64,000 nucleotides of DNA from positions 633,329 through 697,328 of the forward strand of contig JAQUNI010000001.1 in NCBI GenBank assembly GCA_028717685.1, read 5' to 3'. The notes under the pieces were generated by a model. The model was not told the DNA's origin. It did not search any database and was given only the letters and a program-made list of their open reading frames with translations. Position 1 is the stretch's first letter, and each line of letters opens with the position of its first letter. Both the position numbers and the translations under genes were made by a program. Source of the stretch: Patescibacteria group bacterium (GTDB lineage: Bacteria; Patescibacteriota; JAQUNI01). Shown here piece after piece: positions 19,429 through 60,353 of this stretch.

Positions 19429-19809
19429 ATGAATATTATAGATAAAAAGATCGTCAAATTTTATGATCTGGAGGCTTGGCAGAAGGCTTATGAATTGGTC
19501 TTGGAAATTTATAAGATTACAAAGTTATTTCCCAAGGAAGAATTGTTTGGGATGACAAGCCAATTAAGAAGAGCGGCGGCTTCAATAGTAGCTAATATCG
19601 CAGAAGGTTTTGCGAGATACCATTATAAAGATAAGGTAAAGTTTTATTACCAAGCACGCGGTTCGGTTGCCGAGGTTCAAACCTTTTTGTTATTAGCCAA
19701 AGATTTAAAATATATTGATTTAAAAATTTGTAAATATTTAGGGGAAAAGTGCAATGAGGTAGGAAAGCTGATTAATGGTTTGATTCGTTCCATTGAGAAA
19801 CAAAAATAG
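19429..19809 (+). CDS. Four-helix-bundle protein (23S rRNA intervening-sequence protein family)
   Basis: The sequence features EAWQKAYELVLEIYKITKLFPKEELFGMTSQLRRAAASIVANIAEGFAR...ARGSVAEVQTFLLLAKDL are diagnostic of the PF05635 family. Confidence 0.75.
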   Translation: MNIIDKKIVKFYDLEAWQKAYELVLEIYKITKLFPKEELFGMTSQLRRAAASIVANIAEGFARYHYKDKVKFYYQARGSVAEVQTFLLLAKDLKYIDLKICKYLGEKCNEVGKLINGLIRSIEKQK

Positions 19810-20173: not shown

Positions 20174-20373
20174 AAATAAACAACCATTGGCGGCGCGCTA
20201 ACGAAGTTGGCACAAAAAATTGCGGCGGCGGAAAAAGAAGCGGCGAAAGCTTGGGCGATCTAAAAGTTTTTCAAAATTCAGCGTTCGGCCCCGAAGGAAA
20301 GCCTTCGGCTTCCGACGGGATAAAATTTTCGCTAAAAAAAGTTCGGATTTCGTTCAGCGTTTGGAGCTCATAT

Positions 20374-20406
20374 AAAAAAATGGCTTATTTAAGCCATTTT
20401 TTGGTT
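20374..20406. promoter_or_regulatory. Family-A palindrome copy 1 (AAAAAAATGGCTTATTTAAGCCATTTTTTGGTT) upstream of TTGATA -35-like boxes
   Basis: Perfect A/T-flanked palindrome. TTGATA hexamers follow at 20424 and 20455. Confidence 0.6.
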
Positions 20407-20537
20407 AAAATTAGTAAAAATGATTGATAAAGTGTTGCTAAATATTACGTCTCTTTGATAAATTAGTAAAAAGTTATAAAATACATAGATCTTAATAATT
20501 TAAAGATAACTAAAAAGAAAGTATAAGAAGAAAGGAA

Positions 20538-21908: not shown

Positions 21909-22028
21909 AAGGTTGGGACAGTGCTAAGGGAAACAAAATTTGTTTCCCTTTTTATTGACTTTTAGAAAAATTGGTTTAATATGAGGGTTAGTTTAATTAG
22001 TTCATTAAACTTGGTTTAATAAGAGAAG

Positions 22029-22864: not shown

Positions 22865-22908
22865 ATCTTAAGGATTACCGTTATCCGCTCCGTCTAAGAT
22901 ATAATGAG

Positions 22909-22977
22909 TAGCAGACCACGTCGCTCGCGAGCCCCGTCGCTCTTGAGCGACAGGGCGAGCGGCGTGGCAGGGCAAGG
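22909..22977 (+). other. GC-rich structured 5' leader element
   Basis: GTCGCTCGCGAGCCCCGTCGCTCTTGAGCGACAGGGCGAGCGGCG forms interlocking stems. It is preceded by a TATAAT -10 at about 22900. Confidence 0.45.
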
Positions 22978-23049
22978 TAAAATATGATAAACTAAGCTTG
23001 CGGGTTTAAATCAGGAGATATTTTCACTAAAAATATTAAAACAAAAAAT

Positions 23050-25100: not shown

Positions 25101-26066
25101 ATGAAAAAGATTTTAATAATTGGATTGATTGCAGGTATTTTAGTAATTGGAATTATTGCCTTTTTCTTATTACATTTTTCTTCAGAAGAGGAGAATAATG
25201 TGGGCCAAGAATCAGAAATTTTTTGCGCAGATTACGATGGAAATCAACAAGAATGTTTATCCTATTCAGAATGCAAGTGGAGTTCAGATATAAATGAATG
25301 TGATTCAACAGATATGGTTGATGAAAATTATGAAGGATTGAACCAAGAATTAGAAAATATTGCTGTTCCAAATAATCCCTCAAATACTCTTTGCAAAAAA
25401 ATACCTTTGTCAGGTAAACCTCCTTATGGTGAAAGATATTACTGTTTGGCAGTTGTAAATCATGATGAAAGATTTTGTGAAGGGATTGATGAAGAAAAGG
25501 GGAAAAATATTTGCCTAGCCCATGCAAAAGCAGACCCCTCTTATTGTAAAAAAATCCAAGAAGATTCAGCTAAACATGTTTGTTATTATATGCTTGCGGT
25601 ATCAAGCAAAAATGCTGATTTTTGTAGTGATATTAGTTATAGCCAACATGAAAAAGAACAATGCTATTTTAATTTTATGAGTAATTTATATCAGTGGGAT
25701 AAATCTGATGAGATAAAAACAGAATACTGTAATCAACTTGGTACTCCAGATAAAAATACTTGTCTTGCGTTAAAGGCGAGAGATATTTCTCTTTGCGGAG
25801 ATAATCCTCATTGTTTGACTTTTTTTGGGCAAGATTTGTCTTTTTGTGATGAACATCCTGAAATAGATGGTTGCATAAAAGATAGGGCAAAGACAAGTAA
25901 AAATGTGTCAATTTGTGAATTACTTCCCCAGCCAGATAGAGATAGCTGTGTCGGGGTTTATTGCACCCACACAGAGCTTGATGTTAATATTTGTGATAGG
26001 ATTGAGGGTATTAAAGAAAGGCAAGACAGGTATATAGAACTTGCAATGAATTTAGGTAATTGGTAA
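25101..26066 (+). CDS. Membrane-anchored cysteine-rich protein, hypothetical
   Basis: N-terminal TM helix. More than 30 Cys in a repeating C..C pattern. Confidence 0.5.
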   Translation: MKKILIIGLIAGILVIGIIAFFLLHFSSEEENNVGQESEIFCADYDGNQQECLSYSECKWSSDINECDSTDMVDENYEGLNQELENIAVPNNPSNTLCKKIPLSGKPPYGERYYCLAVVNHDERFCEGIDEEKGKNICLAHAKADPSYCKKIQEDSAKHVCYYMLAVSSKNADFCSDISYSQHEKEQCYFNFMSNLYQWDKSDEIKTEYCNQLGTPDKNTCLALKARDISLCGDNPHCLTFFGQDLSFCDEHPEIDGCIKDRAKTSKNVSICELLPQPDRDSCVGVYCTHTELDVNICDRIEGIKERQDRYIELAMNLGNW

Positions 26067-26159
26067 AAATTTAATGCCGCAAAATCCTAAAAGTTTATTT
26101 TGTTTTTTTTATTCATTCTGATTCAAAATTAAAATCCAGTAATTTTTTCCTAGGGGAAA

Positions 26160-26197
26160 TTGGGGTCAGATCTTGTATCTTGACCTCTTTTTATTTT
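26160..26197 (+). terminator. Family-B conserved terminator copy 1
   Basis: TTGGGGTCAGATCTTGTATCTTGACCTCTTTTTATTTT. Confidence 0.6.
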
Positions 26198-26238
26198 AAA
26201 GCGGTTCATAACTTGGTCCGCCTTGGAGGAATTTATAT

Positions 26239-26269
26239 AAAAATGGCTTATTACAGCCATTTTTTGGTT
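26239..26269. promoter_or_regulatory. Family-A palindrome copy 2 upstream of TTGACA/TATCAT promoter
   Basis: AAAAATGGCTTATTACAGCCATTTTTTGGTT, then TTGACA at 26277 and TATCAT 17 nt later. Confidence 0.6.
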
Positions 26270-26619
26270 AAATAATTTGACAAAATAATTCAACTGTTTT
26301 ATCATTATATTTTATAACTCATAATTTACTGAAAGAGGCGATTTTTTGAAACACGAACATTGTTTTTTGGAAGATAGACTTTTTCAGTAGAATAGAGAGT
26401 TTCAATCTCTATCCTAGTAATGATAATGATTTATAAGTTCTACTGTTCATTCACAATTGAATAAGGTTAGAAAATCTTGAAATTTCTGTGAGGAGGAAAT
26501 GATGAAATCAAAGAATTATAATAAGAGATGGTTGGAAAAGTAGAGGTTATTTTTTAGCTATCTTTAGTTACGCTTGATTAGTAGGATACAAGGGTGTGAA
26601 AATCAAGAAGGAGAAAAAA

Positions 26620-29600
26620 ATGGTAAAAGGTGATGTTGATAGAGTGAAGGGGTATATTGATAGTGGTCTGATTGATCCTGTCAAAATAGCTCAAGAAATT
26701 GAAGGGTTGCCAGCATTACAGGTGGCTTATATTATTGATACGTATGACTTGATGCCGTCTACAATTGAACGTGGTGAGCTATATGAATCTGATAGTTTTA
26801 TTGACTTAGCTATGAAAACCCCTGGAATTCTTGAGGATACTCGTTTTGAAATACTTGCGCGATTTCATGAAAATTATGCTGCTAAGCTTTTTGCAGAAGG
26901 GCTGAAACTTTATCTTGATAGTCAAGAGGGAACTATTTTCGAATTTAATAAAGATACTGAAATAGATCCTACCAAGCCAATATCTTTTGTGAGGATTACT
27001 TACCGTCCTAATAAAGGAATAGAGCTGAAATATCTAAATGGAAATGCGCCTAGTAAGGGGTTTTATACCGTTTATTTGGGGAATAATTACACGGTTGTGT
27101 TTGATAACTCGGTTTTTAATAATAGGAAGGCAGTTTTTGAAGAACTTAGCTCAATTTTTTTATCTCGCAAAATTACATTTGTGGACTGTTCTCAGGAAGA
27201 GTTAAATGTGGTACAGCAATTAGAATCCGCTTTCTTATTAGCTTCAGTTGGCAGGACTCCGGTCTCTTGTCGATTTAAAGAGTCTTTCTTAATTGAGTGG
27301 TTGTCTTGGCAGGGCAAGCGGCAATTAGCCCGTGAGGAGGTAAAGCTTTTAGCCCGCCTCCTAAGGGAGAAAAATTTGTCTATCATGACTCCGGCAAGAA
27401 TTAAGCTTTATAAAGCTTCAAAAGGGCAATATGATAGAAGGCTTTTGACGGATATATTCTTTAGGAAGGAGGAGCCCAAAAAAATGGTTTCTAATATAAA
27501 TTGCCTAATGAATTTTAATATGGATTTAGCAGGCATTAAAGGTCCTATTGAAAAAGCGCCATTTCATATTTTAGCTCAAGACGTACCGATTAAGGTTGCT
27601 CCATTAAAAGGGTCGATTTCTTGCGCTTCTTATCTCATGAAATTTTATCCAGGGTATGGGGTATTAGACCAAAGTAAATCCATAATGGTATTAGATGAAC
27701 TTTCGCGCGAGAAGCGCTCTCGTTTGTATCTTAGCTTCTTTTATGATCCCGAGAGTCCGCTTTACAAAGCGCATTCCGCTTTTAGTAATGAAGTTAGCAA
27801 ACAGCTCAGAGAAAGAGGATTAGATAATGCCCGAAAGCTAATCCAGGCTTATATTGTTCGAAATAAGATGAGGATTGAAGATATAAAAGCCGAGGATATA
27901 GCTTTTCTATTTTCAGGTGGTTCTACTTTTTCTTTGTGCGGGATAAAAATACCTCATAGGACGAGACTTATTATGAATAAGATCTTTCCTGACGAATACG
28001 GACGGCTTTCTTTAGAAAGCGGTGAGGAATTATTTTCGCTTGATAATGAAGGCTTAATAGGTATTCGCAAAAGAGCTTATTTTGACGATGGTGCTGATGA
28101 TGCCGATATTTATACATCGGATGAGTTAAAGAGAATCAAGGAACGTTTTCGAGAAAATAGCAAAATGGCAATTAAATGCTATCTTGCTTTGCATCCCGAA
28201 AAAAGCTTAGATCTATTAAGCCAAGGAGATTTGACCGCTATTTCAGCTAAAATGTTGAGAATTTTGGGCGGTAGTTCTGTAAGGGTTTGTTTGAATAGAT
28301 TGATGCCTGATCAGTTCTTAATCCTTGATGAGGAAAAATCCCTTCATTATCTCATGGCAAAAGATAGGGATAAATTTTCTTTAGCCAGAAGATACATTCC
28401 GGATTATTACCATATCGTAGAGGAGGAGCCAGATAATTCCCAAATTTTATATGATGAGCATGATATAGCAGTGATTCGTGAAAGAACTATTGAGAATCTG
28501 AGAACTCTTGTTAAAACTCTTTTAAAATTCAAAGGATTTAGGTTTGTAGAGGAATTGGGCAGGCATAATACTGAAGGGCTGATTGATTTGCGCATTTTAG
28601 GCAATGCTTTCCCTAGTAGAGTTGATGGCAGTAATAATTTTATTGCTTCCACGAGAAAACTTTTCTTTAATGATTACGGTGTTTTAACTGAAGAAAAGTA
28701 TAGATATTGGAAGCATCAGGCAACGGGTCCAAAGAAACGTTATTTAAGCAATGTTTTTTTTATGGATCCAGACCTTGAAGATGGCTGGACTAAAGAAGAA
28801 ATTGAGGTAATCAAGTCACAATCTAAGAAAAATGCTATATTAGCCCTTAAGCTTTATATGCAAGAAGAAGGTATATTAGATATTCATAATATAACCAAGG
28901 AGATGCTGATAAAAGGAGTTGGGAAGCAGCCATTACTTCGTATCCTTGGTGTTTCTAGCTTTAGGAGCATTTTGAATGAAATATTCCCGGATGATTTTGC
29001 TGTTTTAACCCAAAACGGAGTTAAAAATTATTTTTCTTCTTCAACTACCCAGAAGCAGGCTCTTAATTATTCCTACTTTGGGACAAATGCTGACGGAGGG
29101 CTTGAACGGTATGCTGAAATTTCTGGCTTGAATAAAAAGTGGGTTTCTAATGCTATTGTGATGTTTCTTGAATTTCTAAGGGTAAATAGACTGTCATGGA
29201 AAGTATTCGGAGATGATGGGAGTTTACATTCTGATATTACTTTTACTCTTCCGGACAGTGTTTTTAGGATATTCAAGACCGATAACCATCACTTCATGTG
29301 GATTAAGGAGCAAATCGCGCCATTCCTTCATCCCATTGAAGATACAGAAGCTTTCTATTGGATCAATCTTGCTGAAACTGTAAATTTAGTAAAATTTTGG
29401 CAGTTAGATGATCTAAAAAATACTAATAGAATTCAAGACGTTCCTCTGCAGTTAAGAGCTAGAATCGCCGCAAAGGTTTTTGAGCATGGATATCCTTTTA
29501 TTTCTAATCAAAGAAACATGCTCGCAGCTGATTCAAAGGCGCTATTGCTTGCTAACCTTGATTCAATATCGGATCAACTTGATGGGATTGAAAAAGTTTT

Positions 29601-30228
29601 ATCGTTAGCTTGTTCCGACAGGTATGCCAATGTTAAAAAAGCTAGTTGGCAATCAATTTACTTGCTTAATCGCCACAATCCAGCGAAAGCAGAGGAAAGC
29701 ATTGCAATCTTGATGCGTTCCCGCAATCTTTCTGATGCTGAGGTAAAAAATATTCCGTCTGAATTACTAAAGGTAGTGAGCATTACGGCTGGAAAAGTTA
29801 ACAGCGATTTAGTTGACTTGCTTAAAATTTTTGGGCAAGAGCTAGATCTTGATCAAAATTGGCATAGCGACCAAATCAAGCTTATCAAGGGTGCGATTGC
29901 TGCGATAGATCATTTGGCCAAGGGTGAAATAGATCAATTGTTAAGATTGGCAAAGTTGGTTATAGAAAAGAATTTTTTTCTTTTTTATAATAGGGTTTTT
30001 AGGATTTTGGCAAAAAATATCAAATTTTTAACCGTTGATCATTTTGGAAGTTTAGCGCCAATAATTCCGGATTTAGTCTTTGATTCCAATGATGTGACGA
30101 AACAAGTCGGAATGATGCTGGTTGAAAATTTGCGTTTAGCTTACCCTGTTTTAGGAGAAACGAATCAAGCTATGACAGGGAATGTTTTACAAGATGTTAA
30201 GAATAGGATAATCACTGGAAATTTTTAG
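26620..30228 (+). CDS. Large hypothetical protein (about 1200 aa) with internal repeats; no recognised catalytic motif
   Basis: ATG at 26620 preceded by AAGGAG, in frame with ORF 26596. At least four copies of an RILG-SS-R..LN.IFPD-F..L-like module. No Walker A motif found. Confidence 0.6.
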   Translation: MVKGDVDRVKGYIDSGLIDPVKIAQEIEGLPALQVAYIIDTYDLMPSTIERGELYESDSFIDLAMKTPGILEDTRFEILARFHENYAAKLFAEGLKLYLDSQEGTIFEFNKDTEIDPTKPISFVRITYRPNKGIELKYLNGNAPSKGFYTVYLGNNYTVVFDNSVFNNRKAVFEELSSIFLSRKITFVDCSQEELNVVQQLESAFLLASVGRTPVSCRFKESFLIEWLSWQGKRQLAREEVKLLARLLREKNLSIMTPARIKLYKASKGQYDRRLLTDIFFRKEEPKKMVSNINCLMNFNMDLAGIKGPIEKAPFHILAQDVPIKVAPLKGSISCASYLMKFYPGYGVLDQSKSIMVLDELSREKRSRLYLSFFYDPESPLYKAHSAFSNEVSKQLRERGLDNARKLIQAYIVRNKMRIEDIKAEDIAFLFSGGSTFSLCGIKIPHRTRLIMNKIFPDEYGRLSLESGEELFSLDNEGLIGIRKRAYFDDGADDADIYTSDELKRIKERFRENSKMAIKCYLALHPEKSLDLLSQGDLTAISAKMLRILGGSSVRVCLNRLMPDQFLILDEEKSLHYLMAKDRDKFSLARRYIPDYYHIVEEEPDNSQILYDEHDIAVIRERTIENLRTLVKTLLKFKGFRFVEELGRHNTEGLIDLRILGNAFPSRVDGSNNFIASTRKLFFNDYGVLTEEKYRYWKHQATGPKKRYLSNVFFMDPDLEDGWTKEEIEVIKSQSKKNAILALKLYMQEEGILDIHNITKEMLIKGVGKQPLLRILGVSSFRSILNEIFPDDFAVLTQNGVKNYFSSSTTQKQALNYSYFGTNADGGLERYAEISGLNKKWVSNAIVMFLEFLRVNRLSWKVFGDDGSLHSDITFTLPDSVFRIFKTDNHHFMWIKEQIAPFLHPIEDTEAFYWINLAETVNLVKFWQLDDLKNTNRIQDVPLQLRARIAAKVFEHGYPFISNQRNMLAADSKALLLANLDSISDQLDGIEKVLSLACSDRYANVKKASWQSIYLLNRHNPAKAEESIAILMRSRNLSDAEVKNIPSELLKVVSITAGKVNSDLVDLLKIFGQELDLDQNWHSDQIKLIKGAIAAIDHLAKGEIDQLLRLAKLVIEKNFFLFYNRVFRILAKNIKFLTVDHFGSLAPIIPDLVFDSNDVTKQVGMMLVENLRLAYPVLGETNQAMTGNVLQDVKNRIITGNF

Positions 30229-30254
30229 GTTTCCAGTGATTCAGGAGGTTTAAG

Positions 30255-31136
30255 ATGGGCAGCACAATAATGAGCGGTTCTTTGATGAAATTAATTGATG
30301 CAACACTGGAAGAGGCAGAAAGAAGAAATGCGCTTTTAAAGTTTCGGGGGGAACATGGATTGGGAATAAAGCTAGTAAAGAGGAAATATTTACTTGAAGC
30401 TTTAGAAAGCTTAAATGCAAATGCAATGTCGGTTGTTCTTAACGAACAGCTGTTAGAAATTATTAAGTCATTTTGGGCGTGCATTATAGATCCTTTAATG
30501 AGAACAGGGTCTATTCTAGGCCACCATTTGGACTTTTTGCGCAATGAAGTAAAGCTTACAGCTACGATCGGCATCAAGGCTATATGTTTTATTCAAGAAA
30601 AATATGAACCACCAGAAGTTTTAGTGGACTTATATTTCAATGAAAAAAACAAAGAAGGCGTAGAAGCTAAGATCAATAAGCTCGGCGAATTGGTTTTTAT
30701 TGACCCTGATATTAATAGGTTGTGGCCAATAAATATTCGCAGGGTTATCCAGGCTTCGGTCTTAGCTTATTATCTTGTATTAGTTTGTCCTGGAATATGC
30801 AAAGAGTCACCTAGCGGCGATGATGATGAAAAGGACAATGAAAAACGAGAGCAAAAAAAGAAACGGAAGGGAGTAATAAATTTCCGAAGGGCGCATTTAC
30901 GCACATTGCCAGAAGGTTATGTCGCCTCAGCACGCCAGTTGGCACTAGCTATCTCTTCTGGAAAATATAGCGAAGAAGAGATTGAACATATAGTGCAAGA
31001 GGGAAGGCACCAAACTTTTGTGAAGGAATTTTCAAAAGAGGATAGCGACCTTCCGAATATAGATCCTAGAAAGTTATTTAGTAAAATTTCCCCAATAAAA
31101 TTTCTAAATGCTTATTTAGATTTAACGGGAGGTTGA
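30255..31136 (+). CDS. Hypothetical protein (293 aa), co-operonic with the 1210-aa gene
   Basis: Starts 27 nt after the upstream stop with GGAGG upstream. K/E-rich linker. No recognised domain. Confidence 0.5.
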   Translation: MGSTIMSGSLMKLIDATLEEAERRNALLKFRGEHGLGIKLVKRKYLLEALESLNANAMSVVLNEQLLEIIKSFWACIIDPLMRTGSILGHHLDFLRNEVKLTATIGIKAICFIQEKYEPPEVLVDLYFNEKNKEGVEAKINKLGELVFIDPDINRLWPINIRRVIQASVLAYYLVLVCPGICKESPSGDDDEKDNEKREQKKKRKGVINFRRAHLRTLPEGYVASARQLALAISSGKYSEEEIEHIVQEGRHQTFVKEFSKEDSDLPNIDPRKLFSKISPIKFLNAYLDLTGG

Positions 31137-31419
31137 GTTTTCTGGGTTATTCTGAAAAAGAATAACCCTTTTTATTACTAAAATTTTAAAACAGACCGTG
31201 CTTTTTTTGTATTTATTTTTAATTGTTTAAATATATTTAGCTTCCACGAAAGAAAGATTTTTGAATTCTCCTGTAATTTTGTCCCAATCCGTCAAAATAG
31301 AGGAGGTTTAGAATAGTTTTTTTGTTTGCCGAAAGTAGGTTATAATAAAAAAGATATCCCCTTCAAGTTTGCTGCGGCTGGGTAATTTGTTAGTATATTG
31401 GAGACAAAAATCAAGGTGT

Positions 31420-32772
31420 ATGAAACAACAATTAGCAAAATTAATTCCGGCTGGCAGCGTAATTTTGGGAATTACTACTTTAATCTCGTATTTATTAGGA
31501 TTGGTTCGCGATCACTATTTCGCTCAAATCTTTGGCGCTTCAAGGGCTCTTGACGCTTATAACGCCGCTTTTTTGATTCCTGATTTGTTATTTAATATTT
31601 TGGTGGCGAGCGGGATTGCCGCGGCTTTTATCCCGATTTTTACCGAGCTTTTGAAACTTGACGCGGAGCGGGCTTTAAAATACGCAAACTCAGTTATTAC
31701 CGCCGCTATCGGATCAATGATCATTATTTCGGTAATTATTATTATTTTTGCCGGTCCGATTAGCGCGTTAGTGGTCCCGGGGTTTAATCTGACGGATCGC
31801 GCGCTGGTGGCTAAAATTCTTCGCCTCTTGGCTCTATCGCCCATATTTTTTGGAGTCTCAAACGCTATCGGCGCTATGTTAGTAACTAAACGGCGTTTTC
31901 TTTTTTATGGCTTGTCTCCGGTTTTATATAATTTAGGAATAATCGGCGGCACAATTTTTCTCGCGCCGCATTTCGGAATTATGGGCGTGGCATTAGGCAC
32001 TGTCGGCGGCGCATTTTTACATCTCGCAGCCAGATTTTTTGACGCGCGGCGGTCAGGTTTTGTTTTTAGTTTAAAATATTCTTTTGGGACCGCGGAGTTT
32101 AAACAAACTCTCAAATTAATGTTGCCGAAAATGCTTGGCCATCCGATGGAGCTCATTACTTTTTGGGCGTTTACAGCTATTAGTTCTACTTTAATTCCCG
32201 GTTCGGTAGCGGTGATGAGTTTTGCCCGAAATTTTGAAAGTGTTCCAGTTAGTTTAATTGGTATTACTATTGCCACAACCACCTTCCCGATTTTAGCGAT
32301 GACGATTGCCGACCGTTCGATTGAACGTTTCCGCAAAATTTTAAGAAATTCTTTTTTGTTAATATTTTTTACCAGTATCGCCGCCGCCTGCGCTACCTTT
32401 TGGATAAAAGAACCCTTGGTTCGGATTGCTTTGGGAGGGGGAGCGTTTCAGGCGAGTGATATTGCCAGAACCTCGGCGACTTTAGGGATGTTTGCTTTAG
32501 CCATACCGACCGAAGCCTCGATTCAGCTTTTGGCGCGCGCTTTTTACGCTACAAAAAACACGATCATTCCGGTCGCGTTAAGTATTGTCGGGCTTATTAT
32601 TTCAGTTGGCGGCGCCTATTTATTGGTTCCGCGCTATGAGATTTTAGCTTTGCCTTTAGGATTTTTTATCGGCAGCGCGGTAGAATTAATTTTGTTGATC
32701 TTCTTAATTTTGATTAGGACTCGGCAATTATTCAGCCATATTCCCAAAAATGAACAACCGTTGTTGCAGTAA
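31420..32772 (+). CDS. murJ: Lipid II flippase MurJ
   Basis: LGLVRDHYFAQIFGASRALDAYNAAFLIPDLLFNILVAS... is the MurJ/MviN N-terminal signature. 14 TM helices. ATG at 31420 after AAGGTG. Confidence 0.85.
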   Translation: MKQQLAKLIPAGSVILGITTLISYLLGLVRDHYFAQIFGASRALDAYNAAFLIPDLLFNILVASGIAAAFIPIFTELLKLDAERALKYANSVITAAIGSMIIISVIIIIFAGPISALVVPGFNLTDRALVAKILRLLALSPIFFGVSNAIGAMLVTKRRFLFYGLSPVLYNLGIIGGTIFLAPHFGIMGVALGTVGGAFLHLAARFFDARRSGFVFSLKYSFGTAEFKQTLKLMLPKMLGHPMELITFWAFTAISSTLIPGSVAVMSFARNFESVPVSLIGITIATTTFPILAMTIADRSIERFRKILRNSFLLIFFTSIAAACATFWIKEPLVRIALGGGAFQASDIARTSATLGMFALAIPTEASIQLLARAFYATKNTIIPVALSIVGLIISVGGAYLLVPRYEILALPLGFFIGSAVELILLIFLILIRTRQLFSHIPKNEQPLLQ

Positions 32773-32775
32773 GTT

Positions 32776-33576
32776 TTAGTTCGGGTAAACAACTATAATG
32801 GCTTTGCGGCCAGTGGGGATATCTTTCTCTAATTCTAAATTGTTTAATTCGCCGCCGCCAAAAGGCGCGTCGTGAACAGCGTTATATAGAACATTAGCGT
32901 TGTAAACATAATTGTAGCCTCTTCTTGTGCCGACATCATTGGTAATAAAGTTGCCATCTTTAGTTATACCTTTAACCACGATCATATGATAAATCGGTCC
33001 GGGTTGGCGATAAAACGGATTGTTGACCATGCGGCCAGCTAAGGGCACGATGACTGGACGGCCGGCAATTATTTGCGTTTTAATATCTTCCAGAGAAATA
33101 TCATAATCGACATCTACCCGTTTATAACCAAAATATTCTTTTAGTATTTGTCCGGTTTCTTTGGCGGTGGTATGTTCGTAATAGCCAAAGGTTTTATTTT
33201 CCCAATCTACTATTTTAAGAATTTCTTGTTTGGCAATTGCCGGAGTAAGCTTTTCGTGTTTGTAAAAGCGGTCAACTAAAAGAGCCGAGGTTTCTTCGCA
33301 GGCTTCTCCATATGGCAAACTCCAATCTTTATATGGCGCTTGGGCGGAAAAGGGCACAGCTAAGTTTATGCCGGCAAATTTAGTGGAGGTGGCGGCAATG
33401 GGCGACGTTGAAACATTTTCAACCTCTGTTGGCAATTGGCGTTTCTCCAATTCCAGAATAAGGTCTCGAATATTGCTGCGAAAATAAAAAGCCGAAATCC
33501 CGACAACTATCAATGCCCCCGCGGTTATTAATATTTTTTTCATACTATTTATTATACAATATTTATATAATATCAA
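32776..33576 (-). CDS. Membrane-anchored peptidase C39-like domain protein
   Basis: N-terminal TM helix. C39-like (PF13529-type) pattern with Cys (EACEETSALLV) and His (PIYHMIVVKG) segments. Confidence 0.55.
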   Translation of the reverse strand: MILYKYCIINSMKKILITAGALIVVGISAFYFRSNIRDLILELEKRQLPTEVENVSTSPIAATSTKFAGINLAVPFSAQAPYKDWSLPYGEACEETSALLVDRFYKHEKLTPAIAKQEILKIVDWENKTFGYYEHTTAKETGQILKEYFGYKRVDVDYDISLEDIKTQIIAGRPVIVPLAGRMVNNPFYRQPGPIYHMIVVKGITKDGNFITNDVGTRRGYNYVYNANVLYNAVHDAPFGGGELNNLELEKDIPTGRKAIIVVYPN

Positions 33577-33641
33577 ACAATATTAAGCCCACGCATTTCG
33601 CATTCTGATGCCGTTATGATAAAGGCAATCGCAGAATCAAA

Positions 33642-34169
33642 ATGCGTAGCCCCAATAACCTTATTATGAACAAGCATTTAAAAGTTAAATCTTTCCAGGA
33701 AACTTTAAACGCTGGCATGTGCGGGCCGGCTAGTTTAAAGATATTATTTAGTTATTATGGGATAAATAAGACAGAAAAAGAATTAGCCAAGATGATTGGA
33801 TGGGATAAAGATCTAGGGGTAGATGATAAAGGAATCAAACAGGTGGCAGAAACACTGGGTTTTAAGGTAAAAATAAAGAATAATAGCAGCTTCGGAGATA
33901 TTGAGAACTGGCTAAATAAAGGCGTGCCAGTTATTGTGGACTGGTTCACGCGAGGCAGATCTGACTATCCTGATTCGGAAACAGCCGATGGACATTATTC
34001 GGTTGTAGCCGGTTTGGATAATAAATTTATTTATCTTCAGGATCCGGAGATTGGAAAAATAAGAAAAATAAAAAGGTATGATTTTATGAGAGTATGGTTT
34101 GATTTTAAAGGGGACTATATTCAGAAAAATAAATTGATAATTAGACAGTTAATAGTAATTTATCGCTAA
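33642..34169 (+). CDS. Peptidase C39-like domain protein
   Basis: NAGMCGPASLKILFSYYG...DGHYSVVAGLD are classic C39-like Cys and His motifs. Confidence 0.7.
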   Translation: MRSPNNLIMNKHLKVKSFQETLNAGMCGPASLKILFSYYGINKTEKELAKMIGWDKDLGVDDKGIKQVAETLGFKVKIKNNSSFGDIENWLNKGVPVIVDWFTRGRSDYPDSETADGHYSVVAGLDNKFIYLQDPEIGKIRKIKRYDFMRVWFDFKGDYIQKNKLIIRQLIVIYR

Positions 34170-34262
34170 TAAGATGTTTGGAAAGTATCGTTTTTCCGAG
34201 AGCGCAAATATAGTAACTCCCAAAATACTAGGACCTAAATCCGAAGAACTATTAAGAATAAA

Positions 34263-34301
34263 TTTGGGGTCAAGTCTTAAAGCTTGACCTTTTTTTATTT
34301 T
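34263..34301 (+). terminator. Family-B conserved terminator copy 2
   Basis: TTTGGGGTCAAGTCTTAAAGCTTGACCTTTTTTTATTTT with a perfect 7-bp GGTCAAG/CTTGACC stem. Confidence 0.7.
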
Positions 34302-34373
34302 AAATTATAAAATCGCCAGAAGGGCGATTTTTTGGTAAAATAAAAAAGAGTTCATTAAAATAAAAACAAATTT

Positions 34374-34832
34374 ATGCATTTAAAAGTAAGATACATTTTT
34401 ATCCTTGCCCTTTCGGTCATTTTTATAGGAATTGGCATATATATTTTGTTTTCAAAGACAAAAAAGGAGTCTTCTAAAACTCCAGAGAGGACTCAAATTA
34501 TTTGGGTATTGGAAAAAGCGGGCGAAGATAAGGAGACAGGAGCGCCGCTTACGAGAGTAAAAGTAGATTTCAAAGGTGAAATCAATAAAGGATATGACGC
34601 GGGGGTTTATGCCGGAAACTGTTTTGAGATTGCCAAATCTGAATGGGAACTCTTAGAAAATGAAGTTTCGGGAGTGATTTGCTGGTGGGCAGGCGGGGGA
34701 GATGAAATCGGTATTTTTCAGGAGGATGACAAATTGGTTATCAAACACGGGACACTGAGCGCGGGTGGTCCTGCCACAGAAGATGAGCCAGCCATACCGA
34801 ATTTTAGAGGCGACTTTGAAAAACTTTTTTGA
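34374..34832 (+). CDS. Membrane-anchored hypothetical protein
   Basis: N-terminal TM helix then a roughly 120 aa soluble domain. Confidence 0.4.
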   Translation: MHLKVRYIFILALSVIFIGIGIYILFSKTKKESSKTPERTQIIWVLEKAGEDKETGAPLTRVKVDFKGEINKGYDAGVYAGNCFEIAKSEWELLENEVSGVICWWAGGGDEIGIFQEDDKLVIKHGTLSAGGPATEDEPAIPNFRGDFEKLF

Positions 34833-34882
34833 AATGAAAGTAAGACCTGTTTTTTAACCCCAATAAAAAGAAGCATTATTTT

Positions 34883-35626
34883 ATGAAGAGAATTTATCTT
34901 TTATTTTTTTTAGTTATTATAATTGCCGTCATTGTTTTATTAGTTTATATTTTTTTTCAAAAGCCAAAATCATCCTTGCCGCAAAACAATCTCCCCACGG
35001 TTTCAACCAGCGAGCCAAGGCAGAAAAATAATTCGCCATCAGTTTCAAACACAGAGCCAGCGCCGCAACAAACCCAACCCAAAAATGCAAATGTCGGAGA
35101 TACTGGCAAAGGAAGTGCAAGTATTTTTCAACCTCCTTTGGATAGAGCAGGGGAAAGGGTACTTAAGAAAAAGTTTGGTATGTATATCACTCCTCAAAAT
35201 TCGCCAGTGCAGCCGGAAAGATTTCAAGGATATCACACGGGAGTTGACTTTGAAATTTTTCCCGAGGAGTTAAACGCAGAGGTCCAAGTCCACGCGGTTT
35301 GTTCAGGAGAACTCAAGCTGAAAAAATACGCGTCTGGTTATGGAGGAGTCGCAGTTCAGGCTTGCGAATTAGATAAAGATCCGATAACTGTGGTCTATGG
35401 ACACTTGAAATTGTCTGGTATCGCTGCTGATGTTGAAACAAATATTAATGTTGGCGAAATAATTGGGATTCTAGGAGCTAATAGAAGCGTGGAGACAGAT
35501 GGTGAACGCAAACATTTACATTTAGGTTTTCATAAAGGAACAGCGATAGATATTCGAGGTTATGTGAGTTCGGAGGCAGAACTCGCTAACTGGATTGATC
35601 CCTGCCTTTATGTTTGTCATAATTAG
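34883..35626 (+). CDS. Peptidase M23 (LytM-type) family protein
   Basis: HTGVDFEI...GYGGVAVQ...VVYGHLKL...HLHLGFH are M23 metallopeptidase motifs. N-terminal TM helix. Confidence 0.8.
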   Translation: MKRIYLLFFLVIIIAVIVLLVYIFFQKPKSSLPQNNLPTVSTSEPRQKNNSPSVSNTEPAPQQTQPKNANVGDTGKGSASIFQPPLDRAGERVLKKKFGMYITPQNSPVQPERFQGYHTGVDFEIFPEELNAEVQVHAVCSGELKLKKYASGYGGVAVQACELDKDPITVVYGHLKLSGIAADVETNINVGEIIGILGANRSVETDGERKHLHLGFHKGTAIDIRGYVSSEAELANWIDPCLYVCHN

Positions 35627-35644
35627 AGCTATAAATTTTAAAAA

Positions 35645-35684
35645 GTTTGGGGTCAGGTCTAAAAAATTTAACCTCTTTTTTATT
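35645..35684 (+). terminator. Family-B element copy 3 (stem degenerate)
   Basis: TTTGGGGTCAGGTCTAAAAAATTTAACCTCTTTTTTATTT. The sequence is conserved but the 3' arm is mutated (TAACC for TGACC). Confidence 0.5.
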
Positions 35685-35742
35685 TGTTGGCTCCACAGCC
35701 TTCGCTAACGCTTAAGACTATGGAGCCAACAACTGACATCTA

Positions 35743-35771
35743 AAATGGCTTACTTAAGCTATTTTTGGTTT
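35743..35771. promoter_or_regulatory. Family-A palindrome copy 3 upstream of a TTGACA promoter
   Basis: AAAATGGCTTACTTAAGCTATTTTTGGTT, then TTGACA at 35785. Confidence 0.55.
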
Positions 35772-35995
35772 TGAATAGTAAATATTGACAAAAAGTAGAT
35801 AGTATGCTATTCTATGAGCATAGTTCTTTGTAAATGAGACTTACCGAAATTTTACCGATTTTCCTTATTTTACCTCTGCTATTTCAGAGATTTAATTATT
35901 TTAGATGCCTGAAATGGCAGAGGTTAGTTTTGTCCATCTGTTGTCGCGTAAATTTAGTTGTAATAGTAAATGGGATAAAACCCAAGGAGAGAAAG

Positions 35996-36292
35996 ATGAA
36001 GATATTAAAGTTTTTAGCAATAGCAGTGACATTTTTGTTGGGTATTGTTTTTGCGATTTTTACAGTATTATTAGGGATAGGATATTTATCCATGGTTTTT
36101 ACTGGTACCCACTTATCTGCCGAAGAGCAGACAGAAATCTTGCTTATGGGTCTGCCAATATCTGCTTCCTGTTTGGGATTGGGGTATGTCTCTTATGGAT
36201 TTTTCTCTTTTTTCCACTGGTTGCGGAAACGTTGGTTTCAGGTGAACAGAGAGGAGAAATTTGGGGTCAGGACATTTGGGGTCAGGTTTTGA
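35996..36292 (+). CDS. Small membrane protein, hypothetical
   Basis: ATG at 35996 after GGAGAGAAAG, in frame with ORF 35834. Three TM helices. The 3' end overlaps family-B copy 4. Confidence 0.4.
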   Translation: MKILKFLAIAVTFLLGIVFAIFTVLLGIGYLSMVFTGTHLSAEEQTEILLMGLPISASCLGLGYVSYGFFSFFHWLRKRWFQVNREEKFGVRTFGVRF

Positions 36293-36313
36293 AACTTGAC
36301 CTCTTTTTTTATT
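36259..36313 (+). terminator. Family-B conserved terminator copy 4 with internal duplication
   Basis: ATTTGGGGTCAGG occurs twice in tandem, then TTTTGAAACTTGACCTCTTTTTTTATTT. Confidence 0.6.
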
Positions 36314-36498
36314 TCTAAATTTCATTATCCCTTCGGTAAACTTAGGGTAAGCACCTTCGGCTTCACTCAAGGCAAGCATCATTTATCCAAGCGGGAAAAG
36401 TTTTACAAACCGAGCTATCTGTTCGGAAGTTTTTTTATAAAGCGAATTGCCAAAAAGGCGAATTTTTTGTAAAATAAAATAAAATAATACAAATATTT

Positions 36499-38940
36499 AT
36501 GTTATCAGGAGGATTAAGCGAAAAACAAGTTTTAGAATTAAGAGAGAAATTTGGCGAGAATTTGATTCTATCTAAAGAGAAAACCACTTGGCTTTCAATT
36601 TTATTATTTCAACTTAAGAGCCCCTTAATTTATATTTTAATTGTTATCGGGTTTATTTCCCTATTTTTTAAAGAATACTTTGATCTGATTTTAATTTGGT
36701 CCGTGATCGTCCTTAATACCCTGATGGGTTTTTTCCAAGAATACCATGTTAAAAAAACCCTCGCTGCTTTTAGAAAACTTTTAAAGCCTAAGGCGCTAGT
36801 TGTCCGAGAAGGCAAAAGGAAGGAGATTGAAGCAAGGGAATTAGTGCCGGGCGATTTGGTTGTTTTAAATTCTGGAGATAAAGTCCCGGCTGACGGAAAA
36901 ATCATCGAAGGAGTAAATTTGTTAATTAATGAAGCAATTTTAACCGGCGAAGAGGAGGCGGTGGCGAAAACAACAGAGAAAGAAAACAGTCTTGCTTTTA
37001 TGGGCACGATGGTGATTTCCGGCAGGGGAATCATAAAAGTTTTAAATATCGGGAAAGAAACAGCAATTGGAAAGATTGAGCAAAAATTAGCCGACATAAA
37101 AGAAAGGAAAACGCCGATTCAGCTGAAACTTGACGAATTTTCAAAAAGTTTAGGGAAGATTATTTTAATCGTTTGCGTAATTGTTTTTTTAGTAGGATTG
37201 TTCTATCGGGTAGACGCTTGGGAAATGTTTAAGTTCGCCGTTATCCTGGCGGTGGCGGCAATACCCGAGGGTTTGCCGATAGCGATAACCGTGATTTTAG
37301 CCCTCGGGGTGAGGAGAGTATTAAAAAGAAACGGGCTGGTTAAAAGGTTAATTTCAGTTGAGACCCTAGGTTCAACCTCGGTTATTTGCACCGATAAAAC
37401 CGGAACCCTGACAGAAGGAAAAATGAAAGTCGTAAAAACAGATTTTTTAGATAAGGGAAAAACATTGCTTGCTTTAACTTTGAATAATGAGCAAAGGAGC
37501 GGTTTGGAGGCTGCTATTTGGGATTATGTAAAAAAGGAAAAGAGATTTAACCCCCAAGATATTTTTGATAAAGCGGAAAGAATTTATGAGGAGCCATTTG
37601 ATAGCGAAAAGAAATATTCAATGACTATAAATAAAGTTGAAAATAAGGAAATTGCTTTTTTGAAAGGGGCTCCAGAAATTATTCTTTCATTTTGCCAGAT
37701 TTTTGATGAAGAGAAAAATAAAATTTTGAGAGAAATTGAAAAATGGGCGGACGAGGGATTGAGAATTTTAGGGGTAGCTTTTAAAGAGAAAGGAAATTTA
37801 AAGGAGAAGAAAGGATTTTCTTGGCTTGGCTTAGTCGGTATTATTGATCCGATCAGGAAAGATGTGAGAGAGGCAATTTTGAGCGCTCAAAAAGCCGGGA
37901 TAGAAATTAAAATAGTGACCGGCGACTATCGAAAAACAGCCGAAAGATTAGCAGCCAATCTCGGATTTAAACTCGCGCCAAAAAATATTTTAGAAGGTCA
38001 GATGCTGGAAGCTATTTCAGAGGAAGAACTTGAAAAGAAAATAGACGACATTGTTGTATTCAGCAGGGTTGCCCCCCATCAAAAACAAAAAATAGTAAAA
38101 GTGCTTCAGGAAAAAGGAGAGATAGTGGCGATGACAGGAGATGGCGTAAATGATGTCCTTGCCTTAAAAAAAGCCGATATTGGCGTCGCGGTAGGAAGCG
38201 CTTCCGAGGTAGCCAAGGAAGCGGGAGATTTAATTTTACTGGACAATAATTTTACGACGATTGTCGCGGCAGTGGAGGAAGGCAGATTAATTTTTTCAAA
38301 CATTAAAAAAGTTGTAAGTTATGTTCTCTCCAATTCTTTTGTGGAGATTTTTTTGATTTTCGGCTCCATAATTTTAGATTTGCCCTATCCTCTTATAATA
38401 GTTCAAATTTTGTGGCTTCACCTTATTTGCGACGGACCACCCGATATTATATTGGGCTTTGAGCCTAAAGAAAAAGATCTTATGAAAGAAAGACCAGAAA
38501 ATCTTCGGAAAGAAAGCATTCTCTCTAACGCAATGAAATTTTTAATCTTCGGAATCAGTTTTATTATCGGATTCCTCTGTTTATTTCTCTTCTGGTATAT
38601 TCTGGAAAAAACAGGGGATCTAATTTTTGCTCGCACCATTATTTTTACAACAGTCGCCATAGTTGATTTAATTTATATTTTTTCTTTTAAGAATTTGAAA
38701 AAACCCATTTTCAAAACCGAGAATTTTTTCAAAAATAAGCTTTTGTTTTTAGGCGTGCTTTATGGACTTTTACTTACTTTCGCCGCCATTTATTTGCCTG
38801 TTTTGAATCGAATTTTAGGCACAGAGCCTCTCAAACCAATTCATTGGTTATTAGTTTTAAGCGTTGCTTTAATTGCTACCCTTTGGGCTGAATTAGTTAA
38901 AATTGTATATAATCGAAAACATAGGCTTAATAATAATTAG
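36499..38940 (+). CDS. P-type cation-transporting ATPase (P2/P3-type, Ca2+/Mg2+-like)
   Basis: DKTGTLT phosphorylation motif, TGDGVNDVLALKKADIGVAVG hinge and TGES-like region. 8 to 10 TM helices. Confidence 0.9.
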   Translation: MLSGGLSEKQVLELREKFGENLILSKEKTTWLSILLFQLKSPLIYILIVIGFISLFFKEYFDLILIWSVIVLNTLMGFFQEYHVKKTLAAFRKLLKPKALVVREGKRKEIEARELVPGDLVVLNSGDKVPADGKIIEGVNLLINEAILTGEEEAVAKTTEKENSLAFMGTMVISGRGIIKVLNIGKETAIGKIEQKLADIKERKTPIQLKLDEFSKSLGKIILIVCVIVFLVGLFYRVDAWEMFKFAVILAVAAIPEGLPIAITVILALGVRRVLKRNGLVKRLISVETLGSTSVICTDKTGTLTEGKMKVVKTDFLDKGKTLLALTLNNEQRSGLEAAIWDYVKKEKRFNPQDIFDKAERIYEEPFDSEKKYSMTINKVENKEIAFLKGAPEIILSFCQIFDEEKNKILREIEKWADEGLRILGVAFKEKGNLKEKKGFSWLGLVGIIDPIRKDVREAILSAQKAGIEIKIVTGDYRKTAERLAANLGFKLAPKNILEGQMLEAISEEELEKKIDDIVVFSRVAPHQKQKIVKVLQEKGEIVAMTGDGVNDVLALKKADIGVAVGSASEVAKEAGDLILLDNNFTTIVAAVEEGRLIFSNIKKVVSYVLSNSFVEIFLIFGSIILDLPYPLIIVQILWLHLICDGPPDIILGFEPKEKDLMKERPENLRKESILSNAMKFLIFGISFIIGFLCLFLFWYILEKTGDLIFARTIIFTTVAIVDLIYIFSFKNLKKPIFKTENFFKNKLLFLGVLYGLLLTFAAIYLPVLNRILGTEPLKPIHWLLVLSVALIATLWAELVKIVYNRKHRLNNN

Positions 38941-39020
38941 CAGATATAATGATAAAATTCCATTTTACCTCTTTTTTATTTGAATCCTCACAGGAGTTAT
39001 CTTTCAATTACTATAAAGAG

Positions 39021-39058
39021 GAGGGGTCGAGTCTAAAAAGCTTGACCCTTTTTTATTT
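39021..39058 (+). terminator. Family-B conserved terminator copy 5
   Basis: GAGGGGTCGAGTCTAAAAAGCTTGACCCTTTTTTATTT. Confidence 0.65.
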
Positions 39059-39154
39059 CTATATTCTAGCAAAGCAGATGATTATTTTTTAATACCCACA
39101 TTAGATAGCAAGAAATTTTGTGATATAATGAATGTGATTTTTAAAAACAAAACT

Positions 39155-39757
39155 ATGAAAAAAATTGCCATTATCGTGGGTGCGATGTTGCTTTTTTCGG
39201 GTTGTAGTATTGGTGCGAATAAAGCATCCGAATCTGATACCAGCCAAGTCCAAAAAGGGAAAGAGGGAGAAGTTTGCAGCGCCAGCAAGATTTGCGAGGA
39301 GGGACTGAAATGTATCAGTAATATCTGTTCTTCGGGGGTCGTTGGTTCGGCATGCGCGACTTATAAAGATTGTCAAACGGGGTTGTACTGCATTAAAGCG
39401 GTCTGCTCTAATCCGCCTTCTTATACCCAATACTTTAACAAAATTCAGATCGGTAAAATGAAACCAGAACCGCCAGGGCCAAAAAATATTCCCGTTCCTG
39501 CCACCGAATTTACCTCGGCTGACACTCTGGAAATTGATGTGCAGACCAAAACCGGCGTGACAGGCACTTTGCATTATGAACTCATCAATGCCACGACAGG
39601 TCAAACCGAAATGTCTAGCGCGGACAACAAACAGAAAGTAGCGCCAGGATCGTGGGGGACAGGGTTCATGATCCCTGCAGGATTGTCGGGGCAATACGAT
39701 TTGAATATCTATTTTAATGACGAGCTTATTTACACGACTACTATTACTGTGACCTAA
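39155..39757 (+). CDS. Lipoprotein with Cys-rich N-terminal region, hypothetical
   Basis: Signal peptide with lipobox LFSGC. Repeated C..C.SNIC/KAVC motifs then a beta-rich C-terminal domain. Confidence 0.55.
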   Translation: MKKIAIIVGAMLLFSGCSIGANKASESDTSQVQKGKEGEVCSASKICEEGLKCISNICSSGVVGSACATYKDCQTGLYCIKAVCSNPPSYTQYFNKIQIGKMKPEPPGPKNIPVPATEFTSADTLEIDVQTKTGVTGTLHYELINATTGQTEMSSADNKQKVAPGSWGTGFMIPAGLSGQYDLNIYFNDELIYTTTITVT

Positions 39758-39794: not shown

Positions 39795-40009
39795 AAATAA
39801 CGAAATCGCAGAACCATAAGGAGGTGTGCATTTTGACTACACTTTTTTTGAGCTGACTAATTAAACAGGTTCTAACCCTTCGGCTTAGTTCGATAGGTAT
39901 GACGGTGAGCCCGTCGAACCGATAACTATAAATTGCTTGAGGGCAGGCGTTCGTCCCGAGAGGACTTGAGCCCCGAGGGGCTATTGTCTACGATGCGGAG
40001 TTTATATTA

Positions 40010-40043
40010 AAAAAATGGCTTAAATAAAGCCATTTTTTGTTTC
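40010..40043. promoter_or_regulatory. Family-A palindrome copy 4 upstream of a TTGACT promoter
   Basis: AAAAAATGGCTTAAATAAAGCCATTTTTTGTT, then TTGACT at 40049. Confidence 0.6.
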
Positions 40044-40217
40044 CAGTATTGACTTATCCGACAAAATAGGAAATAATGATGTTTATAGGATTTATTTTTT
40101 TTATTGAGATGGTTCTTTTTTACTAAAATTAATCTAGTATATTAAGCGGCAGAAGCGACCTTTGAGATGTATATAATATTTTTTGAAGTAATCATTATTT
40201 TTTGTGGAGGTGAAGAT

Positions 40218-60088: not shown

Positions 60089-60181
60089 ATGGATTAGCGA
60101 CAGCCCTTGAAGAGACTACTATATAAGACCATCTTTAAGATGTCGTTCTGGGAGATTATGTGGTAAAATAGAAATAGAAAT

Positions 60182-60336
60182 AGGACTTTCGCGTTGGGTA
60201 ATAATTAAATTGAATATACTTATTGTCATTCCCGCCCCGTAATAAATACGGGGTAAACTCCAGCGGGAATCCAGGATTAGTGCTATCAATCTGGATCCCC
60301 GATCGGGTCGGGGATGACATTAAACGCGAAAGTCCT
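60182..60336 (+). other. Structured element with 14-bp perfect terminal inverted repeats (candidate cis-regulatory RNA, ncRNA or MITE)
   Basis: AGGACTTTCGCGTT...AACGCGAAAGTCCT enclose three hairpins (TTCCCGC[CCCCGTAATAAATACGGGG]...GCGGGAA; CCAGGATT...AATCTGG; TCCCCGA-TCGGG-TCGGGGA). It ends 17 nt upstream of the ATG at 60354. Confidence 0.5.
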
Positions 60337-60353
60337 GAAATTAAAATAAAAAT

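Follow-up and report, generated by a model that had tools for sequence, protein, structure and literature searches.

In the minimal mobile elements of Neisseria, alternative cassettes lie between conserved genes, where transformation and homologous recombination replace one by another, and in the same genus inverted pairs of the DNA uptake sequence (DUS), or Correia elements, double as terminators. The DUS acts in DNA uptake and occurs about once per kb throughout the genome. The pdif modules of Acinetobacter are gene modules bounded by a short palindromic Xer site and found in different contexts; pdif sites are 11-6-11 XerC/D sites that occur as inverted pairs and lie on plasmids. Repetitive extragenic palindromes (REPs) are hot spots of recombination and of insertion sequence (IS) insertion (PMC1525189), and in promoter reuse, or putative mobile promoters, highly similar regulatory DNA stands beside non-homologous genes within one genome or in close genomes (PMC3575422). 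The Patescibacteria, or candidate phyla radiation (CPR), have tiny genomes in which few mobile elements can be recognised, and yet the accessory genes for surface and secreted proteins vary from strain to strain. Here we describe a repeat of ~50 nt, element B, that occurs as five plus-strand copies (consensus GGGAAATTTGGGGTCAGGTCTTGAAACTTGACCTCTTTTTTATTTC) in a 64-kb stretch of the genome of an uncultured, Doudnabacteria-like member of the Patescibacteria (contig JAQUNI010000001.1 of assembly GCA_028717685.1; the whole stretch is called the window below). B is a genuine, sharply defined repeat of likely terminators, restricted to one lineage, and it sits where the units of a cassette-like hypervariable region meet.

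A first-pass annotation of this DNA had reported five copies of the element, each directly behind a gene, and all five were recovered, on the plus strand. With R1, a covariance model built from 16 B copies, they score 54-65 bits, and the next-best match in the window scores 17 bits; R1 scores are bimodal, with family members at 46-70 bits and everything else at 31 bits or less. Given the gap within the window, B is a discrete family and not the tail of a terminator continuum. Two core patterns matched the window 12 and 9 times, as against 3.5 and 1.9 expected, counts that none of 100 shuffles reached. A looser regular expression, run over the 64 kb, returned exactly five full copies, all between 26.1 and 39.1 kb, i.e., clustered within 13 kb. 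When the window was searched for repeats, B was the top direct-repeat family, and a palindrome, family A, came second.

Four of the five copies lie a short distance 3′ of a co-oriented open reading frame (ORF), and the remaining one overlaps its ORF. B1 (26152-26201; R1 60.6 bits) forms a hairpin, GGGGTCAGAT/ATCTTGACCTC, with one bulge and then a T-run, and lies 96 nt 3′ of ORF 25101-26066. B2 (34256-34306; 62.9 bits), a perfect 10-bp hairpin with T7, lies 97 nt 3′ of a gene for a C39 peptidase (33642-34169), and the degenerate B3 (35639-35690; 55.6 bits), whose 3′ arm reads ATTTAACC instead of CTTGACC, lies 23 nt 3′ of a gene for an M23 peptidase (34883-35626). B4 (36268-36318; 64.9 bits) is a hairpin with T7, with 11 pairs in the terminator scan, and immediately ahead of it stands an extra tandem copy of the 5′ half of B, ATTTGGGGTCAGG (36259-36271, plus strand). 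This duplication (36259-36271 and 36274-36286) had been placed in the last codons of the frame 35996-36292, and translation confirmed it: the frame, which we call cassette gene X, runs through the half copy (...KFGVRTFGVRF*) and has its stop codon in the B4 loop. Gene X (plus strand) lies between B3 and B4, is found in the window strain only and plausibly encodes a small membrane protein. B5 (39013-39064; 53.9 bits) is a hairpin, GGGGTCGAG/CTTGACCC, lengthened by pairing between AGAGGA and the T-run, and lies 83 nt 3′ of a gene for a P-type ATPase (36499-38940). The string that the first-pass annotation took to be shared by all copies is close to the consensus, but it is not literally present in copies 1 and 5, which read ATTGGGGTCAGATCTTGTATCTTGACC and GGAGGGGTCGAGTCT...GCTTGACCC. 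Two public ORF calls touch these copies: a 37-aa ORF (34174-34287) that ends inside B2 looks like an ORF-calling artefact across the repeat, and a 137-aa call in another frame (35905-36318), which reads through B4, looks spurious. Most window genes lack NCBIfam matches, and exact look-ups of two window proteins (39128-39757 and 25101-26066) returned the same strain only.

The consensus has the layout GGRAAATTT-GGGGTCAGG-TCTTGAAA-CTTGACCTC-TTTTTT-ATTTC. Its RNA hairpin, GGGGUCARG/CUUGACC, has 9 pairs, and because 2-3 of these are G.U it exists on the plus strand only. Copies 1, 2, 4 and 5, each with T5-T7 directly behind the stem, fold at -12.9 to -19.6 kcal/mol on the plus strand, as against -7.8 to -10.4 kcal/mol on the minus strand (B1, -12.9 kcal/mol; B2, -17.0 kcal/mol, z = -4.7; B5, -19.6 kcal/mol, z = -3.7), and copies 2, 4 and 5 were the best matches of the region in the terminator scan. 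The suspected loss of pairing in copy 3 was evident from its fold: with TTTAACC in the 3′ arm, B3 reaches -6.0 kcal/mol (z = +0.18), which is no better than shuffles and not a stable hairpin.

Of the 189 pair cells in 21 members of the family (window and relatives together), 97.4% are paired. Where a cell deviates from the commonest pair, the change is mostly of the G.U type (25 of 30), which pairs on the plus strand only; six of the nine pairs vary one-sidedly among G-C, G.U and A-U, and compensatory double changes number zero. The conserved flanks, GGRAAATTT and ATTTC, fall outside the stem. Zero covariation together with conserved flanks beyond the stem indicates that the copies are related by descent, i.e., homologous and not convergent. 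The earlier suggestion of a dispersed repeat, alike beyond what its structure needs, is thus upheld by the extra-stem flanks, by the discreteness of the family under R1 and by its restriction to one lineage. Each of the 21 members has an ORF on its own strand that ends 12-250 nt upstream. Judged by this anatomy, B is likely a Rho-independent terminator that ends transcription of the upstream gene. At the gathering threshold, Rfam found only two tRNAs in the window, and B matched no family. Three other roles were considered and rejected: TTGACC of the 3′ arm as a general -35 box (a properly spaced -10 exists at copy 2 only), peptide coding (reading frames and stop positions differ between copies) and a DNA uptake sequence (B is rare and clustered, not genome-wide).

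The first-pass annotation had noted that the motif might simply be the consensus of all intrinsic terminators in this genome. Our scan of gene ends in the window found ~14 clear hairpins with a T-run, of which four are B and the other 10 are each built on an unrelated stem. A strict form of the motif had 32 matches among 185,579 species-representative genomes; eight of these fell in a single metagenome-assembled genome (MAG), Candidatus Doudnabacteria SO_2017_SWC_9 (JBAZQX01), one near-identical copy fell in a MAG labelled Saccharibacteria (L015), and the others were singletons or small families in unrelated phyla, with R1 scores of 25-34 bits. The JGI metagenomes yielded the same Doudnabacteria contigs and one more short contig. 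Viral contigs gave two weak pattern matches, neither of which scored with R1, and none to a stricter consensus. In relatives with an ~85% identical ATPase, no B was found within ±10 kb of the ATPase ortholog, and one of them (L082) has a different sequence behind the conserved 3′ region of the ATPase gene; these relatives are not syntenic with the window and are informative only on the absence of B there. On these counts B is not the genome's general terminator style, and it appears confined to a narrow Doudnabacteria species group, at a low copy number of about ten per genome; the whole related MAG has eight strict matches, and the 64-kb window has five copies.

A B copy (1811-1857) lies 189 nt downstream of an ORF resembling an IS30 transposase (634-1632) on a short JGI contig, L069, that ends inside B, an assembly break of the kind that a repeat would cause. 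Unrelated bacteria of higher GC content (Desulfobacteraceae, a Proteobacteria MAG, Elusimicrobia and an Actinomycetota MAG) carry recurrent 28-nt hairpins of the form GGGGTCAAGTCT-NNNN-TTTGACC-T-run (L003, L016, L025, L030, L032, L033, L037, L044, L047, L053, L063, L066, L076 and other loci), whose loops are sometimes identical across genomes and some of which have an extra upstream GGGGTCA half copy. These were rejected as members of B, given R1 scores of 25-34 bits, and appear to be separate repeat families or chance.

We compared the window with JBAZQX (loci L031 + L006 and L086), a third strain (L085), L088 and a fourth strain (L089), and the strains proved polymorphic, with junctions in or next to B. 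JBAZQX is 90-95% identical to the window between 21.9 and 42.8 kb, where the alignment is a mosaic. Window 26149-34308, the 8.2 kb from B1 through B2, corresponds in JBAZQX to ~2 kb with a methyltransferase gene and a 269-aa ORF. Homology ends at window 26148 and B1 is missing; at the position of B2, JBAZQX has only the 3′ half, i.e., the loop end, 3′ arm and T-run. B1 is present in strain 4 (L089 1709-1759, 64.6 bits), after a 321-aa gene, and different genes then follow. Presence at orthologous positions, which the first-pass annotation had named as a check, thus does differ between strains.

The interval between the M23 peptidase and ATPase genes has three states. Strain 3 has a single B and then an element C, with no gene at the site; the window has B3, a family-A palindrome, a promoter, gene X and B4; and JBAZQX has one B (Ba), C, a DUF998 gene, a second B (Bb) and a second C (C′). 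Around the DUF998 gene, ~73 nt (B and the first half of C) are repeated with three differences. The single B of strain 3 is a hybrid: its left flank and 5′ half are as in B3 of the window (L085 1-33 is identical to the B3 left flank and 5′ half), and its right half and flank are as in the JBAZQX copies. B5 is conserved in three strains (orthologs at JBAZQX L086 12519-12570 and strain 3 L085 2754-2805), and what lies downstream is a lipoprotein gene in the window, palindrome A directly in strain 3 and four other genes in JBAZQX. Where the window has a non-B terminator hairpin, AGGGAAACAAAATTTGTTTCCCT (21929-21951, plus strand), JBAZQX has a B, and the downstream T-run and promoter are common to both.

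JBAZQX and L088 both have a unit of DUF998 gene, 3′ untranslated region (UTR) and B, each at a different locus. In L088 this unit is joined to the spacer, the hairpin-promoter and the 160-aa gene that the window has behind B2, and the junction falls inside the 3′ arm of B; in L089, the DUF998 gene lies upstream of MurJ without B. Junctions do not keep to one position: they were seen 12 nt upstream of B, within the loop, where the stem ends on its 3′ side or the T-run starts, and beyond the T-run. The strain comparisons revealed no insertion of B alone with both flanks conserved, B always changing together with a gene, and no target-site duplications at B. Among ~57 window ORFs compared with Pfam or NCBIfam, none had a transposase, integrase, recombinase or HUH domain. 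An apparent circular permutation of the 8.2-kb window segment in L011 (175-aa ORF, B, 1256-aa ORF) was rejected, as its proteins are not homologous to those of the window.

The reading that we favour, and consider probable, is that B is a lineage-restricted family of homologous terminators at the 3′ ends of cassettes, spread and shuffled by homology-driven recombination and not by transposition. The copies are concentrated in the hypervariable part of the window (~20-43 kb), among accessory cassettes that encode secreted proteins, peptidases or membrane proteins. The B hairpin would travel at the 3′ end of gene cassettes, and B, with the modules A, C and hairpin-promoter, would offer short stretches of homology for RecA-type or illegitimate recombination, which could join, insert, delete or swap cassettes at the shared modules. 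Incoming cassettes would probably derive from DNA taken up from co-occurring strains. Such a route is plausible, since cultivated Patescibacteria have been shown to be naturally competent (PMC10633639). Shuffling of this kind would leave B-gene-B arrangements, single-B empty sites, and hybrid, half and decayed copies. We infer that recombination at B would be a cause, and not only a consequence, of cassette turnover. The first-pass annotation had offered either a repeat like a REP or like a miniature transposable element with inverted repeats (MITE) or a recombination-spread terminator cassette; the cassette option fits best, and a transposing REP/MITE is unsupported.

Several findings weigh against this reading. 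About 11 of the 16 intergenic regions of the 20-43 kb stretch are strain junctions when the alignments are read, so the whole region is hypervariable and the presence of B at five of five junctions is not significant by itself; it is not significantly enriched relative to intergenic regions without B (rough Fisher p ~0.1, a hand estimate). At least five junctions have no B, e.g., window 31410, 33609 and 41140 and L089 4375/4543. Some copies have no usable T-run (L029 3104-3127; L088 910-960) and others no stem (B3; L086 8833), which means that the B sequence persists without terminator function. There is also an unexplained, near-identical B copy (59 bits) at L015 3771-3821, in a MAG labelled Saccharibacteria (CAZKRD010000003.1) that is otherwise without detectable similarity to the window; its loop is identical to that of one JBAZQX copy, and it could reflect cassette transfer, a mislabelled MAG or binning contamination. 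B may ride along with cassette turnover instead of causing it.

We give next to no credence to the view that B is a chance similarity among ordinary terminators. Although many unrelated phyla have single hairpins that fit the strict pattern, these score 25-34 bits as against the 46-70 bits of members, the shuffles never reached the observed counts and the flanks are conserved; the R1 score gap and the unrelated stems of the other window terminators refute this reading. It is very unlikely, too, that the identity of B is kept by selection, as a site bound by a protein or RNA that recognises this sequence and co-regulates accessory genes, the candidate partners being a termination or antitermination factor, or a factor acting on stability or regulation through the 3′ UTR. 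Conservation does exceed what pairing needs, including flanks and parts of the loop, with no compensatory changes, and the genes are mostly those of secreted, peptidase or membrane proteins. However, orthologous copies differ at ~14% of positions and are no better conserved than the neighbouring coding DNA (~94% identical), copies that are dead or halved are tolerated, the ~85% relatives have no family member around their ATPase ortholog, and a candidate factor was not identified.

We also think it unlikely that B is a REP/MITE-like element, mobilised in trans by a REP-associated tyrosine transposase (RAYT) or an IS transposase, that lands preferentially after genes and doubles as a terminator. 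B is indeed a short extragenic imperfect palindrome in several copies, some of them decayed, with conserved outer arms (GGAAAT...ATTTCC); the L069 contig that ends in B carries its IS30-like transposase ORF 189 nt upstream; and in relatives B adjoins a GTAG-tagged GC-rich palindrome, element C, GTAG tags being a hallmark of REPs (PMC3733652). The tag is on the separate element C only, however, and B itself, which starts with (T/A)GGGGTCA and ends in a T-run, has neither GTAG nor CGTC. Nor was there a presence/absence polymorphism of B alone with conserved flanks, a target-site duplication, a Y1/RAYT gene in the 64-kb window or a copy in viral contigs, and about ten copies per genome, not hundreds, are present. 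A site-specific recombination site of the attC, Xer/dif or HUH-hairpin type, with termination as a side effect, likewise seems improbable. On that account, a gene with its 3′ B would be excised as a circle and re-inserted at another B by a recombinase encoded elsewhere, which would suit the direct orientation of all copies in an array of genes with a 3′ imperfect hairpin, the contrast at one locus between a one-B empty site and B-gene-B sites filled with two different genes, the DUF998-UTR-B unit at two loci, the half and hybrid copies at junctions, and the inverted arms around a centre of 7-9 nt, as in the core sites of tyrosine recombinases. The crossover point is not fixed, however, given the spread of junctions from 12 nt upstream of B through the loop and stem end/T-run start to beyond the T-run; the duplication around the DUF998 gene covers ~73 nt of B and part of C, not B alone; and conservative recombination should not yield a half site. 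Moreover, the R″/R′ boxes of attC (RYYYAAC/GTTRRRY) are absent from B, which has no GTTRRRY at its 3′ end, the cassettes are preceded by promoter-like sites of their own, and the ~57 window ORFs include no integrase, transposase or HUH match. We see only a slim chance that B belongs to an unrecognised cassette-shuffling system of Patescibacteria, integrase-independent or distantly encoded, and doubles as the cassette terminator.

The homology-driven reading also involves the modules that accompany B. Family A (AAAATGGCTTATTTAAGCCATTTTTTGG) has four window copies (20377-20411, 26240-26274, 35742-35776 and 40012-40046), and each is followed 30-45 nt downstream by a strong promoter-like site. The copy at 26240-26274 (plus strand), AAAATGGCTTATTACAGCCATTTTTTGG, is followed by TTGACA-17-TATCAT at 26277-26305, and that at 35742-35776 (plus strand) by TTGACA-17-TATTCT at 35785-35813. 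The first-pass annotation had combined B, the palindrome and the promoter into one composite module, and their co-occurrence at copies 1 and 3 is real; A and B are nevertheless independent, since A occurs without B at 20377 and 40012, and B also occurs without A. Family A marks strain junctions too, as at L085 2823-2864, directly after the B5 equivalent of strain 3. The downstream partner of B2 is a hairpin, AAAATCGCCAGAAGGGCGATTTTTTGG, that overlaps an extended -10 (TGGTAAAAT; 34309-34341, plus strand; family D16). This hairpin-promoter module, in which AAAATCGCC-N4-GGCGATTTTTTGGTAAAAT overlaps the -35/spacer and the extended -10, recurs at 36447-36475, ahead of the ATPase gene, where it is kept in the ~85% relative L082 (~9950-10000), and may be a lineage-typical promoter or operator architecture.

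Element C, represented in the window at 22905-23016 (plus strand), is a GTAG-tagged, GC-rich long hairpin with GGTAAAAT, and its place in relatives is immediately 3′ of B copies. It spans ~110 nt, comprising a perfect hairpin, ACCACGTCGCTCGCGAGCCCCGTCGCTC-TTGA-GAGCGACAGGGCGAGCGACGTGG, and then GGGGTAAAAT.TGATAAA, and was also found at L086 8884-8999 and 9832-9880, in L024 and L029, and at L085 58-135. Because versions without the hairpin exist in L023, L011 and L089, comparison of the two forms suggests that the hairpin itself is a REP-like insertion into a promoter module. The related MAG has non-coding modules of the window at other genomic positions, from which it follows that reuse of intergenic modules is general in the lineage. 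Among the smaller features, hairpins with cores like CCTTCGGCTT lie between genes at ~20285-20320, 35688-35730, 36335-36365 and 39860-39990, one of which occupies, in the alignment, the place of element C′ of JBAZQX. Two conserved non-coding modules lie at 60175-60338 (L086 21643-21805, L073 12424-12567) and 58064-58109 (L006 5122-5168), one of the two being upstream of a beta-propeller gene and one a GC-rich hairpin. Beside tRNA-Asn lies ORF 19429-19809, which strongly matches the protein family of the 23S rRNA intervening sequence and has a bAvd-like match that is weaker; no reverse transcriptase was seen near the ORF.

The locus shows, at base-pair resolution, small cassettes delimited by a few reused intergenic modules, with one homologous terminator at many junctions. 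If B and its partners act as portable homology or as a recombination site, they would explain cassette turnover in an uncultured lineage, and the emerging genetics of Patescibacteria would gain terminators and promoters of natural origin as parts. If B were a cassette-shuffling site, it would mean integron-like variation of surface and secreted proteins in tiny genomes; a dedicated role of this kind would be much more interesting, but we hold it to be improbable. Should B be no more than a passenger, the locus would still document plainly that terminators are reused, as promoters are known to be in prokaryotes. A literature search found no paper on such a family of terminator repeats in CPR bacteria.

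Compared with known systems, B resembles intrinsic terminators in its G+C-rich hairpin and U-tract, in its position 3′ of and co-oriented with genes, in its strand-specific G.U pairing and in an A-rich 5′ flank that can pair with the U-tract; it differs in that ordinary stems within one genome are unrelated, whereas B copies have inherited a common stem, common flanks and part of the loop. With the REPs and bacterial interspersed mosaic elements (BIMEs) of Escherichia coli and Pseudomonas and their RAYTs, it has in common that they are short, lineage-specific, extragenic imperfect palindromes after genes, which are recombinogenic and can terminate or stabilise transcripts; unlike them, it lacks GTAG/CGTC, has ~ten copies, an obligatory T-run and no RAYT nearby, and changes only with genes. 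Integron attC cassettes, e.g., the VCRs of Vibrio, are similarly units of a gene and a 3′ imperfect hairpin, in co-oriented arrays with homogeneous hairpins that fold strand-specifically, and with different cassettes at the same position across strains. B, however, lacks the R″/R′ boxes, and the 64 kb yielded neither IntI nor attI; its cassettes have their own promoters and variable junctions, and it measures 35-50 nt, as against 57-141 nt for attC. The Neisseria systems share with this locus alternative cassettes between conserved flanks and repeats that double as terminators, but B, unlike the DUS, is rare and clustered, and a role in uptake is not indicated. As in pdif modules, copies of one short palindromic site bound the modules, although the B copies are direct and, unlike dif, have T-runs. 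In promoter reuse it is the promoter that recurs beside unrelated genes, whereas B is a reused terminator, often accompanied by promoter modules, at cassette junctions that vary between strains.

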